DNA of 62,706 nucleotides, the filler included, from Diploschistes diacapsis (taxonomy: Eukaryota), in assembly GCA_023645945.1 (NCBI GenBank). It is 15 parts of 15 records of this genome, joined end to end, with 100 filler letters (N's around TTAATTAATTAA, not from the genome) between each part and the next. Parts side by side here need not be neighbours in the genome. Positions count along the whole stretch, not along the records: positions 3,070 to 24,419 come from JALAIB010000310.1; 14 more parts are not named here. One strand, 5' to 3'. Shown here piece by piece: positions 12,631 through 19,288 of this stretch (the stretch's first letter is position 1; every line of letters begins with the position of its first letter). The notes under the pieces were generated by a model. It searched no databases. It was not told the DNA's origin and saw only the letters and a program-made list of their open reading frames with translations. The position numbers and the translations under genes are program-made.

Positions 12631-14681
12631 CTATAGCCAGTCCCTGAGGATCTTCCTGTTTTTCTTCAGTACCTGATTCAGTTTCTTCTCTGCCACCTCC
12701 GCTTCCTTCCTAGTACTCAGTAACAGCTCTTCCGAGGCCTTCAACGTCTGCTCCGCCTCTTCCACCGTCATCATCGCCATACGCGCCTCGATTTCGTCAT
12801 TCTCTGATTGTGTGCGCGGCGGATACATAGTAGCATACTGGGGCTCCTTGCTATCAGGCCTCATGATCGAAGCCGCATACTCTTTGAGCAACGCCTCTGG
12901 TGTGCCTGCATCTGCCGCCTCGTCATCATTACTATCAAGTGGCGGCGCAACTTGGTGGCCCGAGAGAAGGTCGTTGCTCGTAAAATTCAGCCAGGCGTCG
13001 GCGGGGTATGCGGGGGACGTGAAGCAACCAGCTGTGGCATGGATGAACTCCTTGCGTAGCTCGATGTAGCGCTTTGCTTCCTCGTGCGAGAGATGGCGGA
13101 GGACTGAACGATCTGGAAGCACGACAGCGTACTCCTGTAGATAGACTCTCTTGGGGATACACTCGCCTTGGTCTAACAGCTTCTTTTCTTGACTTGTAAG
13201 GTGGACGAAATCGTCGTAAGCAAAGTTAGAAGCAATAGCGGTTTCGAAGCGAGTATTGACTCCACTGGGGCCAAGAAACAGGTCCAGCGTGGTGGACGAT
13301 ATGACCCCTGCTTTCTTGAGGTCGGGAAAAATTGCTGCTGGCGTCATTCCCGCTCGCGGTTGTACACTGATAGACTCAACAGGTGTGGTATTTTCTGTTC
13401 CAGACTCTTCTACTACTCGAGCTCTGCTCCTCTTGCTTACTGCCATTTCCTTGGCCATGGTGATGGCCTCTTTAGTTTCTTGATCCCTTTTTTCCATGGC
13501 AGCCCTGTCTTCTACTTGAGGAGATGAGACCTCAGAATCGGCTCCTGTCACGATACCTAGGGTTGCTTGTGGCTTCTTGGACTTTTTCTTTCGGCCTATA
13601 ATGGGTGCCTGGACGATTTCTTCTTGCACTGGGCTCGAGGTACTTTCCTCAGCAAGTTTCGCTTCCTCAACCTGCTTCGCTCTTGCTTGTCTATCCTTTT
13701 TCACTTGGTTTCTACTCTTCTGAGAGGCTGGCCCGGTGCCAGGTTTACCACCAAAAGGCGACGGTGGTCTTGATAAAGAAGCAGATGTCAACGAAGCATT
13801 GTCAGAAATTAGATCATTGACTGGCGTGCTAGGCTGTTTGGCTGGCGCTTGCTTCTCCTGCTGTAAAGATCGTTTGGACGCCACAGAGGTGAAGGCAGTG
13901 CTTTCCGGCGGAGGAGTTACTATCTTTTTAGATACATCAATCTTGGCTGGCGGGACAAGTCTTAGGGTGCGTGGATTTCGAGAGGCGGGTAAAGTGGCCT
14001 GCGATGAGTTGGTACCTGAAGAACTCGGTCGCGAGCTGTCGACAGCGGCTGAGCTTGAGATAGATCTTTCAAATGAGTTTTGCGGGAGCTGCTGGATTGG
14101 TAAGGTAAATTTATGGGCCATGTTCTTCAAGTCTGCTGGAGTCTTCGGCTTGGTCTTTGCCTTCACGGGCGAAGGTTTCACAACCTTACTTCCAGCGGCT
14201 GCGGCTGCAGTAGTCGAAACCCCTGCATTTTTAGGCGGTTGTGGAGCGGATTGGACCTCCCCAGTAGTACCGGCAGCTTCGGATTTTTGACTGGTTTGTT
14301 TAGATCGCAGCCCCGACTTCAAAGGGCTCTTGGTCTCTTCCGCCCTTGCGATCTCCCTGGGAGGTGATTCTTTGGGAGACTTGTCGGTCTCCGCTGGCCT
14401 AGCGATATCCTTCGGTGGAGGGGGATGCGAAGCCGTCGGCATAGAGTGATTTTCTGCTTCACCACCCGAGAAAATTGGAGGAACTGGAGAGTCTTTTATA
14501 TCGGCATTGCGTTTGAGGGGGGCAGTAAGGGGTGGAAAATCAGCTGACATCAGTAGTCCTGGAGGTGTTGCGGGAGTGATAGGAGTAGCCCCTTCAGTTT
14601 TCAATGCGGCGACGGGAGGTGGTTGTTGCATAGAGGGCTTACGATCATGCTGGATGATCGAGGTAGTGTCGTCGATTGGAC
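12631..14681 (-). CDS. NOT4: Alternative 3' terminal exon of NOT4 (contains the 666-aa ORF); C-terminal coiled coil
   Basis: Branch site GACTGAC and acceptor TAG at 14684-14682 lie 50 nt upstream of the ORF ATG with an open frame. The acceptor is phase 1, matching two phase-1 donors in NOT4 exon 4. An independent gene is not excluded. Confidence 0.7.
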
Positions 14682-15204
14682 CTAGAGTCTCGAGTCAGTC
14701 CCGTTTGCGGCCAAAGTGCGCCAGTGAAGAGCAGGGCGAATCAGCAAAGCACACAGGATTAGGCGGGCGGCGGGCTTAGGCTCTTTGCTACGGGCGAATG
14801 ATCCTCAAATCGTAGGCGTATGTCAACGAAGTGCATGGAATCTATCAGAGGACGGAGAGTGTAAGAAAGAGCGTTTGCTGGTAGTCCATCTGCATATAGC
14901 AGAGGAGAAAGGGTTAACGTACAATGCGATCCGTTTATTGAATAATGCTGATGCGACAGTATAGCCCAATTCATGCCACCGGGATAAATGTGAATTTTGA
15001 AGCCTCCCATAAGAATTCATATGCCGGTTGCAACGCCATTCTCAGTCATGATGCCTGCACTAGCTGTTTCGTGCTGTCCACAACCATCGAAAAAAAGCCA
15101 CCTTTTCCATGACTTGGGTGCATATCATAAGAATCGTAGGTCCCGGAAGCGTAACCAGAAATCAAGGCTGAATAAAAGGAAAGCATGTTCCATCGTGTTG
15201 TGCT

Positions 15205-16333
15205 TCACCATCGGCCACCAAACCCACCGCCGCCATACATCATGCCCTGAGAGTTGTACCCACCTTGATTCTGAGCATTGCCATAAGGCCCCTGTCCAAC
15301 GCCAGTGTGGTGCATTCGAGCCTGAAGAATGCTTGGGTCCGCAAGATCTACTGTCGCACCTCCTCCAAAAGAGGAAGTGTTAGCATGTCTGTGCCTCTTT
15401 CCCTTCTTCTTCGGCTTTGGGGCTAGCTGATCTTGATATACGGAAGGCACACCAACTTGATGACCACCAGAAGTATATAGACCACGGGGCGGTGTAGGGG
15501 TGGATGCAGATGCTGGGTAAGAGGGGACTATGAACTCACGCTTGCCTTGGTCTGCACCCATGTTATTCCCACCAGTCAATCTCCCACGCATAAGGTCCCT
15601 GGCGTTCTCATCGTTCTTGGTCCCTAAGTTTGAGGTGAAATTGCCGCCACCAGCCATTGCACTAGCAAAGCCATGGCCCTGACCGAACATACCTCCGCCA
15701 CTGATAGGCGGAGTACCGCTCGCCTTGAGCCCTGGTGGCGGTCCTTGGACGCCAGTATAGAAATTAGTATGAAGACCCGTCTGCGTGCCCTGGTGGCCAA
15801 GAAAATTCTTCTGCTGTGTATGAGGCATCATTGCAGATTGCTGTGCTATCAATTGCGCATTTGTAGAGGGCTTAACGACAGTCGAGGCAGACGACGTGTC
15901 GTTCGCGAAGGTGAACCTGGAGGTATGACGCCCATGGCGAGATAACGAGCTTAGGTGCTGGTTTTGCGATTGAAAAGGGTTTGATAATTGAGAGTGATGC
16001 TGGCTTGTGTTGCCACTTGATACACGCCGTGCTTGGTCCAGGCTAGGATCCTGCTGCGTCATTCCTGACTTTAAGAGGGAAATATTGCGCTGTTGTTGTG
16101 GAGTCAAGCTTCGACCACCCATTGACATATTAGAGAATTCGTTACTCATCGAAACTTGCCTGTCGAACGGCTGTGTATCGCCAGAGAAAAGGCCAAATGG
16201 CGTTTGGCGTCTGCTATTGTTAGCAGCTCCCGGAGCGTCATCGCCGTTCTCTGGTTCCCCGCCTAGCTGTAAGCTTCCACCAGCTAGATTTTCTTCATCT
16301 TCAGGCACGCTCAGAGCTTGCTCGGCTTTTTCT

Positions 16334-16365
<32 letters not shown>

Positions 16366-17963
16366 TTCTTCTTCTTCTCCTCCTTCTTCTCCTTCTTCTC
16401 CTTCTTCTTCTTCTTCTTCTTCTTCTTCTTCTTCTTCTTCTTCTTCTTTCCGCTCTTCTTGTTCGCGCTGCTTTTTGGCATGTAATGCAAGGCCGCCGTT
16501 TGGATCGATCAAGGGCGGGTAGTTGTCGATTAGGTCCATAGTTCCTTGATCGTAGACGTTGCGGTCCAGGGACCAACTGAAGTCCGTGCTGCCAACGACC
16601 TTGAATGCTTCCACTAGGCGCGACAGGGAAGCCGGTAACGGCGGCTTTGATGTTAAGCCCTTTGCTGAGCCACTTGGAGATGAAGAAGGTTCTTCCGGTG
16701 CTTTCGATGTTGGCTCGGACGGCGCTGTGGAAGGCGGACAGGCCGCCTGACTTTCCGGTCGCAGAATGACCAGCTTTGGATGCGTAGTTTTGGGACTTGG
16801 CGTGGCACGACTGGCTGCCTGGCTGGATCTTCTACTCTGCTCAACTTGAGGATTCTTTGCCCAGCTCGCTGTTGTTGGCAAAGCAGAGCCCTCTCCACTA
16901 TCACTTCGACTCATAGCTTCAGCTTTGACAGCTTGAGTACTGGAAACTTGAGCAGCTGGTGGCGTAACAGTCGCCTGAGAAGACTGCGCCAGCACAGGGA
17001 CCGCGTTAGCCATTCTCGAGGAACCCGAAGCTGAAGCACTTGGAGCAAGGCGTTGGGAGGATGCAGCGTTAAGTGATGAAAGGTCAGCGCGACTGAAGCT
17101 GTCACTGTCATCGCCCGTCTCGTGCAGAAACATGCAACTACGGTTCGTGCATCTTTCGTTCCTTAGGAAAGCAGAACAGTATTTTGTGGTGCCATATTGA
17201 GCACTTGGACGACATCAGCTCACCATACACGATTTGGGAGCTGCTACTTACCGCAAGACCCGACCTTCGTGTGGTGTTCCATCCACCGCTGCTATGCACA
17301 TTCTTGCATCATCCTTGTTCGCGAATGTCACATATATACCAGTTGACTGCCCCGCGTAACCCTCTTTAGCTTTGCTAGCCACAATCTTGATGATATCTCC
17401 GTACTGTCCGAAGTGGTTTTGACCCCGCAAGGTTTCGAGAGCATTTTCATCACCGCTGATATCCATACCGACAACATAGACTAGATTCTTCTGCAGCACT
17501 CGAAGACCTGCCAGGTGTTTGCGATTCAGTGTCTCCACTTGCCTCCGCTCAGCCTCTTTCTGTCTTGCTGCGGCCTTTTTCTTTGCTTGAGCAGCAATAT
17601 CCGCCTTGAACCTTTACTATGTAAGCCTGGATATGTGGGCAACATTTGACACAAACCTACTCCTCGGGGCTAACCATCTTCCATTCTATGGTTTTGTCAT
17701 CGTACGGCCGCCGACATGCTGGGCAAAGCCCGTTCATGTTTTGCTTGATGTTGTTGTAGCAGAATTGACATACTTGATAGCCGCAAGGACATGGCTTGAA
17801 GTTTTTGTCGGAGAGGTCAAATTCTTCCACGCAGAGGGGGCTACACCGAAAAGGTCAGCATCGCCTCACACTGTGAACAAGACAAAAACCGTTAGTCAAG
17901 GTCTGCTTACCAGGTATCATCACCTTCGTCCATAAAGGAGTCTTGTTGTAATCGGTTGACCAT
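15205..17963 (-). CDS. NOT4: CCR4-NOT subunit Not4 (RING E3 ligase, RRM, CCCH); short isoform 863 aa; exons 17963-17911, 17840-17661, 17611-17252, 17203-15205
   Basis: C4C4 RING CPLCVEEFDLSDKNFKPCPCGYQVCQFCYNNIK..GLCPACRRPY; RRM LRVLQKNLVYVVG..FGQYGDIIKIV; AQYGTTKYCSAFLRNERCTNRSCMFLHE. Spliced length is 2592 nt, in frame. Confidence 0.96.
16330..16448 (-). repeat. (GAA)n microsatellite encoding a poly-Glu tract in Not4
   Basis: About 39 TTC/TCC triplets on the + strand, giving EEEEEEEEEEEEEEEGEEGEEGGEEEEEEEEEEEEEEEE. Confidence 0.97.
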
Positions 17964-18290: not shown

Positions 18291-19288
18291 ATGGCCGCGC
18301 GATCAAACGTAGCGAGCAAGCTGCAAGTGGTTTTGCGGTCTTCAAGCAAGCCGTCGTCAGTGTCAGCGGTTCGCCCATTTAGCTCGGCGTCCCGGCGGTG
18401 GAAAGACATTGCCTCTCAAGATGAAGTACCCAACATGCGCCATGCTGCTCGACCTCCTCGTATGCAATGTCCTTTCCTATTCCATTCTCAACATATCTGC
18501 TGCCGCTCAAGGGAGCACCTTATTGCGGACGGCCCATCCTGCTGCGATTGCATCACAACTAACGCCTCGCAGCATCCGGCGACCTTAAAGCCCCCGTCGT
18601 AAACCCCGCCGACAGATACTCCTCCAAAGCCAGCGACTTGCACAGCTACGGGCAATACCTGACCTCTTGCCTACCCAAATACATCCAGCAATTCTCCGTG
18701 TGGAAGGACGAGCTGACAATCTACATCCCGCCCGCGGGCGTGCTCCCCGTTTTCTCTTTCCTCAAATACCACACTGCCGCCGAGTTCACCATGGTCGCCG
18801 ACATCACCGCCGTCGACTATCCGACAAAAGACCAGCGCTTCGAAGTCGTCTACAACCTCCTCTCTGTCCGCCACAACAGCCGCATCCGCGTCAAGACGTA
18901 CGCGGACGAGGCGACGCCCGTGCCGTCCATCACCAGCCTGTACGACGGCGCCAATTGGTACGAGCGCGAAGTGTACGATCTGTTTGGCGTTTTCTTCGTC
19001 GGACACCCGGATCTGAGACGGATTATGACAGACTATGGATTCGATGGACACCCGCTGAGAAAAGACTTTCCGTTGACGGGCTACACGGAGATCAGGTACG
19101 ACGAAGAGAAGAAGAGGATCGTTGTCGAGCCGCTGGAGCTGTCGCAGGCTTTCCGCAACTTCGAAGGGGGCACGGCGGCGTGGGAGCAGGTGGGACCGGG
19201 GAAGGATAGGAAACCGGACAGCTTCAAGTTGCCGGATCCGAAGCCGGAGCCGCCGAAGGAAGGGGAGCAGCAGGGGCAGAAGAAGTGA
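18291..19288 (+). CDS. NDUFS3: NADH:ubiquinone oxidoreductase 30-kDa subunit (NDUFS3/NuoC homologue), 294 aa; exons 18291-18459, 18573-19288
   Basis: Arg/Ser-rich presequence; [53 protein letters not shown]. Intron GTATGC..CTAAC..CAG. Confidence 0.97.

Follow-up and report, generated by a model that had tools for sequence, protein, structure and literature searches.

Functional alternative splicing that yields two proteins from one gene is considered uncommon among fungi, in which retained introns tend to be dismissed as noise. Exonic introns, or exitrons, are said to have been defined by Marquez and colleagues in 2015 in Arabidopsis and human, and tandem acceptors of the NAGNAG type are likewise a known concept. 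Within the fungi, the alternative splicing of SKI7/HBS1 is ancient and gives two functional proteins from one gene in mRNA surveillance or decay (PMC3597508). We analyzed a stretch of 62,706 nt of DNA from Diploschistes diacapsis (GenBank assembly GCA_023645945.1), hereafter the window, which contains within its NOT4 gene a 189-nt segment with parallels to each of these systems.

Like the exitrons of Arabidopsis and human, the segment lies inside a coding exon, runs from GT to AG, is free of stops and a multiple of three in length (3n), would leave both isoforms coding, and encodes what looks like a disordered linker. It differs from them in belonging to a filamentous fungus and in being conserved at the nucleotide level over at least five ascomycete classes, and it differs from isolated exitrons in that its donor is common to a second, much longer intron, making it part of a multi-way hub. 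Like SKI7/HBS1, NOT4 would represent a rare and deeply conserved instance of fungal alternative splicing in a gene of mRNA surveillance or decay. However, the gene and the architecture are different, since NOT4 combines an internal in-frame deletion with a choice of C-terminus rather than producing two paralogue-like proteins. The parallel to NAGNAG acceptors is found in the hexamer CAGTAG at 15353-15348, which places two in-frame acceptors 3 nt apart. The product of the +3 site, K-H-LADP, occurs in one gene model (P0282); use of either acceptor in D. diacapsis is putative.

Searches of the literature on Not4/CNOT4 isoforms, exitrons and alternative splicing in fungi turned up no description of fungal NOT4 splice isoforms. 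Among the matches listed for "exitron" in the fungal literature, the term occurred only in plant and animal papers, and the 12 of 21 places covered of a 2025 review of CCR4-NOT (PMC12746107) leave NOT4 splicing unmentioned. So far, NOT4 isoforms exist only as unreconciled gene models, and the conflicting Not4 models of ~600-870, 1465, 1480 and 1555 residues become readable as isoforms of a single locus. Judged by its sequence, the candidate NOT4 exitron is a new and unusually well-conserved fungal case in the exitron class, placed within a combinatorial hub. It would make a clean case as well, with splice signals invariant at synonymous sites across Pezizomycotina and a retained sequence that is still coding, in a gene on which the control of mRNA decay and of translational quality centrally depends.

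We consider it probable that the segment is a genuine exitron, i.e. an in-frame NOT4 intron that is alternatively removed and that is conserved across Pezizomycotina. This reading is preferred because protein conservation marks the retained form as coding, nucleotide-level conservation has kept the splice signals fixed, and the spliced junction occurs in database proteins of other species. Splicing in D. diacapsis itself, its ratio, and the role of the linker are what we infer from these comparisons.

The NOT4 gene and its 189-nt segment

The gene was assigned to Not4/Mot2 from an N-terminal C4C4 RING followed by an RRM (Pfam RING PF14570 at 17657-17854, E = 2.4e-22; Pfam RRM PF00076 at 17248-17613, E = 8.9e-06). 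Its homologues carry the names Not4 and MOT2, the nearest of them being from lichen-forming Lecanoromycetes. The borders of its three upstream introns were read by eye, while its last exon is an open frame (17214-15208, minus strand) that runs through the 189-nt segment. The features referred to below are as follows.

15205..17963, minus strand: NOT4/MOT2 short-form coding span, with ATG at 17963, three short introns and stop TGA at 15207-15205
15534..15539, minus strand: donor D1, GTGAGT, in the context AAG C/GTGAGT TC, with GT at 15539-15538, lying within codons CGT GAG T(TC)
15351..15539, minus strand: candidate exitron, 189 nt, 63 codons without a stop, phase 1 at both ends (coordinates script-checked)
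15385..15417, minus strand: basic cluster K-P-K-K-K-G-K-R-H-R-H, NLS-like by pattern only
15367..15384, minus strand: branch site GCTAAC (15384-15379) and pyrimidine tract ACTTCCTCTTTT (15378-15367), codons A-N-T-S-S-F
15348..15353, minus strand: tandem acceptor A1, CAG at 15353-15351 and TAG at 15350-15348, both phase 1
15264..15350, minus strand: 87-nt module from A1 to D2, encoding (V)DLADPSILQARMHHTGVGQGPYGNAQNQ
15258..15263, minus strand: donor D2, GTGGGT, codons CAA G/GT GGG T, with GT at 15263-15262, phase 1
15205..15263, minus strand: short-form tail GGYNSQGMMYGGGGFGGRW plus stop, translated only with the D2 intron retained
12631..14699, minus strand: acceptor A2 and 687-codon downstream frame, with ACTGAC at 14699-14694 and TAG with its AG at 14683-14682, phase 1

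The segment encodes REFIVPSYP...KPKKKGKRHRHANTSSFGGGAT(V). Codons for K-R-E-F (15543-15532) span D1, GCTAAC supplies the A-N codons of H-A-N, and the RNA of the basic cluster is a purine-rich AAG repeat just 5' of the branch site. By its parts it has the makeup of an exitron, as it sits inside a continuous coding exon with a GT donor, a branch site and an AG acceptor, is free of stops, and has a length of 3n. Much of this had been anticipated. The original prediction had named the gene as Not4 on the minus strand, which the two Pfam matches and the homologue names bear out, and had described a donor C/GTGAGT, a branch site GCTAAC and a CAG/TAG tandem acceptor bounding 189 nt (63 codons) of stop-free sequence in phase 1 at both ends. 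A scripted reading of the minus strand returned every one of these elements at the predicted coordinates, and translation gave the retained peptide exactly as it was first read. The simple on/off switch that had been proposed was not borne out, since D1 would also join 14682 and another frozen donor is present at 15263, which points to a multi-way hub.

Retention of the segment would place in the protein a poorly conserved linker, then a near-invariant basic cluster, and then H-R-H-A-N-T-S-S-S-G-G-G-G. Splicing from 15539 to 15351 would give ...GK-L-DLADPSILQ with the loss of 63 residues and splicing to 15348 would give K-H-LADP with the loss of 64, with the frame kept either way. The branch site and pyrimidine tract would then be dual-coding, doubling as A-N-T-S-S codons. 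We envision the exitron as one arm of a hub of four sites, D1 (15539), A1 (15351), D2 (15263) and A2 (14682), all of which are in phase 1 such that D1-A1, D2-A2 and D1-A2 joins all remain in frame. With the D2 intron retained, the protein would be short and end in GGRW; D2-A2 removal skips the TGA at 15207-15205 and joins the 687-codon frame. NOT4 would accordingly specify proteins of either length, and in both the basic linker could be present or absent. The 87-nt module behaves as a cassette exon once both flanking introns are removed, and its protein sequence is strongly conserved and present in exitron-spliced models and proteins.

Conservation across Pezizomycotina

The pattern GTRAGT, CTAAC within 400 nt and then YAG occurs 11 times on the two strands of the window, compared with 10.9±3.8 times in 100 mononucleotide shuffles of the window, and among these 11 cases only the NOT4 segment is both 3n and open throughout. 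Within the window alone, the splice-signal pattern is at chance level, and a single in-frame, open-through case is approximately what chance would produce. As the window pattern does not go beyond chance, the question has to be settled by cross-species comparison. A possible 5-bp pairing of the donor's GCAAG with a CTTGC past the acceptor, also noted by eye, was dropped because the upstream codon is not conserved.

For the comparison, peptide patterns upstream of the donor were used to collect 80 orthologous loci from metagenome contigs, which reduce to 56 distinct sequences and, with the window, give 57. The nearest named relatives of the distinct sequences fall into five classes, which we take to be Lecanoromycetes, Eurotiomycetes, Dothideomycetes, Sordariomycetes and Leotiomycetes. 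For each of the 80 loci, tblastn returned one alignment in one frame across the segment with its protein conserved, and the segment is likewise kept as protein in 120 of 120 near-length homologues. Its first half is variable and contains indels, its second half, KQKKKGKKHRHANTSSSGGGG, is almost invariant, and the basic cluster is nearly invariant in orthologues (KQKKKGKKHRH). Based upon the near-invariance of KQKKKGKKHRHANTSSSGGGG and upon retention of the segment in contig L052, the retained form is judged to be translated and under protein-level selection. Of the 80 loci, L052 alone is clearly cDNA-like, as it lacks four introns of its relative L054. It keeps both the exitron segment and the D2 intron, ends in ..GRW, and belongs to a clade with eroded 3' signals.

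A different situation is encountered in P0326, P0329, P0342 and P0350, in which the frame ends a few codons past the donor (..GKRK*, ..GRRK*). This suggests that in such lineages the coding capacity was lost and the segment is a plain intron. The frame also ends shortly after the donor in P0306, P0311 and P0316, and ..GRRESNTVF* is a further ending of this kind.

At the donor, AAG CGT GAG T is nucleotide-identical in 57 of 57 distinct sequences. Synonymous changes, taken as Fitch counts on a tree built from flanking columns, number 0, 0 and 0 at K87, R88 and E89, compared with 23, 16 and 16 at other conserved Arg columns; conserved four- and six-fold columns upstream show 14-25 changes and two-fold columns show 8-14. 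CGT accounts for 16% of the Arg codons in the sampled NOT4 genes. Residue 90 may be F, L, Y or S, yet its codon is always T-first, with Ser written only as TCN and Leu only as TTA or TTG (TTR constitutes 26% of Leu codons in the background). The synonymous constraint stops exactly at intron position +6.

At the other end of the segment, GCTAAC is present in 50 of 57 sequences, and 49 of the 57 combine it with an in-frame YAG located 10-37 nt further on. Segment length in these 49, whose signals are intact, ranges from 177 to 198 nt and is always 3n. Such frozen synonymous sites at donor, branch and acceptor, together with a 3n length, had been named as the check on the prediction, and the comparison passed it (57/57 at the donor, 49/57 for the 3' signals). 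Fitch synonymous changes amount to 4 at A140, 0 at N141, 5 at T142 and 2 at S143, versus 12-22 at four- and six-fold control columns. The first YAG past the branch is in frame in 50 of the 50 sequences that have one. An AG is near-automatically in phase 1 here because the codons that follow start with G, and in-frame length alone is therefore weak evidence, whereas codon choice is informative. The codon preceding the acceptor exhibits an excess of A-ending forms, with ATA for Ile in 17 of 17 cases (background 22%), GTA for Val in 17 of 23 (background 17%) and TTA for Leu in 6 of 15 (background 9.6%). An earlier in-frame CAG (TCA/GGA) lies 14 nt past the branch A in eight sequences, three of which have no other in-frame YAG up to 37 nt from that A. 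Lys columns of the basic cluster, immediately upstream, show 0-5 synonymous changes each versus 9 at control Lys columns. The conservation of H-A-N-T-S-S may reflect RNA signals rather than protein function.

Synonymous sites are also frozen just 3' of the acceptor, in GAT CTT GCG GAC CC (15347-15335, minus strand), with GAT at D152 in 50 of 50 sequences, GAC at D155 in 57 of 57, 0 Fitch changes at each, and CTT and GCG nearly fixed where the residues are L-A. This GAT..GAC block could act to enhance splicing of the 87-nt module. At the far end of the module, D2 reads GTGGGT in 45 of 57 sequences and retains GT in 50 of 57, synonymous changes are reduced (4 at Q179, 4 at G180, 3 at G181), and the residue after D2 (Y, F or L) is T-first in 56 of 57, the exception, L067, having lost D2. 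Many long gene models exit the frame exactly after ..GQGQ, i.e. at D2. In one Pleosporales-like clade A1 and D2 decay together with D1 still invariant, and this joint decay counts in favor of the exitron. The tail beyond D2 is conserved as protein up to the stop, with R197 and W198 invariant in 16 sequences.

Spliced products and alternative explanations

Long Not4 models from other Pezizomycotina were gathered in a first search with a segment-containing query, and 44 more were found with a query restricted to sequence upstream of the donor. The resulting 164 long models are distributed as follows.

Segment retained: 127 of 164
D1-A1 spliced, ..AAK-L-DLADPSILQ..: P0260 (Blastomyces), P0261 (Histoplasma), P0262, P0266, P0275, P0278 and P0281
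D1-A1 spliced via the +3 acceptor, ..K-H-LADP..: P0282, bringing the D1-A1 total to 8 of 164
Probably D1-A1: 1 of 164 (P0254)
D1 joined to the downstream exon (D1-A2): 24 of 164, ..AAK-L-DEEFPPLG in Aspergillus, ..GK-H-D.. in Alternaria and relatives
Other or unclear: 4 of 164 (P0183, P0218, P0243, P0272)

When 1.84 billion representatives were searched by phmmer with a 218-residue stretch of P0262, 129 proteins were listed, 116 of them new, and the junction is present in seven of these 116 (P0291, P0323, P0339, P0340, P0353, P0355 and P0399). P0355 is a complete frame of 745 residues, from M to W, and the ..RW tail that ends L052 also ends six of the seven junction proteins. P0291 matches A. 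fumigatus Not4 (P0177) over residues 671-707 and then 770-801, with 62 residues absent. It would represent a spliced Not4 of A. fumigatus-like type, for which the genome models keep the segment. Since the Leu codon at the junction is split by the splice (C+TA), nucleotide-level splicing is needed to create it, and the junction proteins are best read as derived from spliced transcripts or splice-aware models, not from exons stitched together by homology. The product ...GKLDLADP had been predicted from the D. diacapsis sequence, and that junction is found exactly in database proteins of other species (8/164 and 7/116); that Not4 gene models of other fungi include both forms had likewise been stated and proved correct, with 127 of 164 retaining the segment and 8 of 164 reading K-L-DLADP or K-H-LADP. 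Two models were excluded as evidence and put down to prediction artefacts, namely P0183, in which a tiny intron starts at D1, and P0218 (Bacidia), in which the donor follows ..SSSGG. In P0272 (A. niger), splicing occurs after ..SSFY, at another phase-1 GT inside the segment. The odd sites of all three models are probably prediction artefacts, yet the predictors do see D1 as a donor.

Retention of the segment in 127 of 164 models and in the cDNA-like L052 speaks against use of the exitron, and three other explanations were considered. It is conceivable that there is no splicing in the Diploschistes lineage and that the segment is plain coding sequence, its signals being inherited or fortuitous and without present function. 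The chance-level occurrence of the signal pattern in the window fits this view, as does the retention of the segment in all 21 long Lecanoromycete-type models (P0122-P0142). Nevertheless, neither the window nor any Lecanoromycete-like locus has lost one of the signals, and passive inheritance over such depth is implausible when synonymous sites elsewhere in the alignment are saturated; we regard this explanation as quite improbable. At the opposite extreme, a constitutive intron misread as coding would account for the strong consensus signals and for the few other lineages with a stop just after the donor (GKRK* and GRRK* in P0326, P0329, P0342 and P0350). This is scarcely credible for D. diacapsis and is refuted for the lineages of the 80 loci, as all 80 carry the segment as an open, in-frame stretch, the KKKGKKHRHANTSS motif is near-invariant, and a spliced transcript-like contig, L052, retains it.

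A further explanation accepts D1 as real, but solely as an alternative 5' site for removing the long terminal intron (15539 to 14682) that skips the conserved C-terminal module, in which case the internal acceptor would be unused in D. diacapsis and its conservation would stem from protein or other RNA constraints. Use of D1-A2 in 24 of 164 long models (..K-L-DEEFPPLG and ..GK-H-D..) could by itself explain the invariance of D1 entirely, and D1 and D2 are both in phase 1. It is also consistent with the Pleosporales-like clade, in which GCTAAC and YAG are lost and GTGAGT is kept invariant all the same, in agreement with the D1-A2 models of Alternaria. What it leaves unexplained is the low synonymous change from A140 to S145, the rare A-ending codons at the acceptor, the CAG at +14 that is the sole in-frame YAG near the branch in three sequences, and the exact D1-A1 junction in 8 models and 7 further proteins. 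We therefore deem it unlikely, and an alternatively removed exitron remains the preferred reading of the segment.

The basic linker and the long C-terminus

If the exitron is used in this manner, one element gained or lost would be the basic cluster. By eye, KPKKKGKRHRH (15417-15385) fits K-K/R-X-K/R, the core pattern of the classical monopartite NLS. That splicing partitions the E3 ligase between nucleus and cytoplasm through an NLS switch is a tentative proposal, and a rather doubtful one, the cluster being NLS-like by pattern only. Passages of PMC7773993 describe A. fumigatus Not4 as about twice the length of the yeast protein, with a C-terminal domain specific to filamentous fungi, and report that cutting it at residue 693 increases its abundance and alters its localization. 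This phenotype is the sole hint, and an indirect one, of nuclear import through importin-alpha. Residue 693 is located 14 residues before the D1 position (K707/R708 in P0177), so that the truncation drops the extension along with the linker and the DLADPSILQ module and therefore cannot single out the basic cluster. The protein is orthologous, and splicing is not among the features described for it in these passages, in which the strings "splic" and "intron" are absent and "isoform" occurs once.

The 687-codon frame (14681-12631) forms the C-terminal extension of the long (~1500 aa) Not4, and the 164 long models from other Pezizomycotina (1178-2184 aa) continue into homologous ..DFPPL.. sequence; the exact position of A2 in the window is a putative placement from sequence and frame. 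Pfam gave no match in the 687-codon frame. With regard to the Not1-binding C-terminal segment of the yeast structure, a phmmer search of the last 198 residues against PDB sequences gave a single chance-level match (MutL, E = 1.2). L052 extends ~940 nt beyond the short-form stop, and a further 54-nt intron ~320 nt 3' of that stop, seen at L054:3871-3924, is absent from L052 (3021/3022). It follows that the mRNA enters the downstream exon region even with the D2 intron retained.

A broader and more speculative scenario would combine all of these features into an ancient hub producing at least four in-frame proteins, in which an NLS-like arm partitions Not4 between nuclear and cytoplasmic or ribosome-associated pools, a second arm contributes ~690 residues specific to filamentous fungi, and H-A-N-T-S-S serves partly as an RNA signal. 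Taken as a whole, we view this combination as possible, though unlikely. A synonymous change of the Arg codon would lock retention of the segment, just as an intron-less allele would lock the spliced form, and with such locked NOT4 alleles the contribution of the basic linker could be told apart from that of the long extension.

Two minor observations concern the surroundings of the segment. A GAA/GAG repeat in the last NOT4 exon (16330-16460, minus strand) encodes ~55 residues that are almost purely Glu, at a position where the consensus of the orthologues has a short acidic patch only. Divergent from NOT4, a 241-codon open frame (18563-19288, plus strand) may correspond to the 30-kDa subunit of mitochondrial NADH dehydrogenase (complex I), which it resembles.
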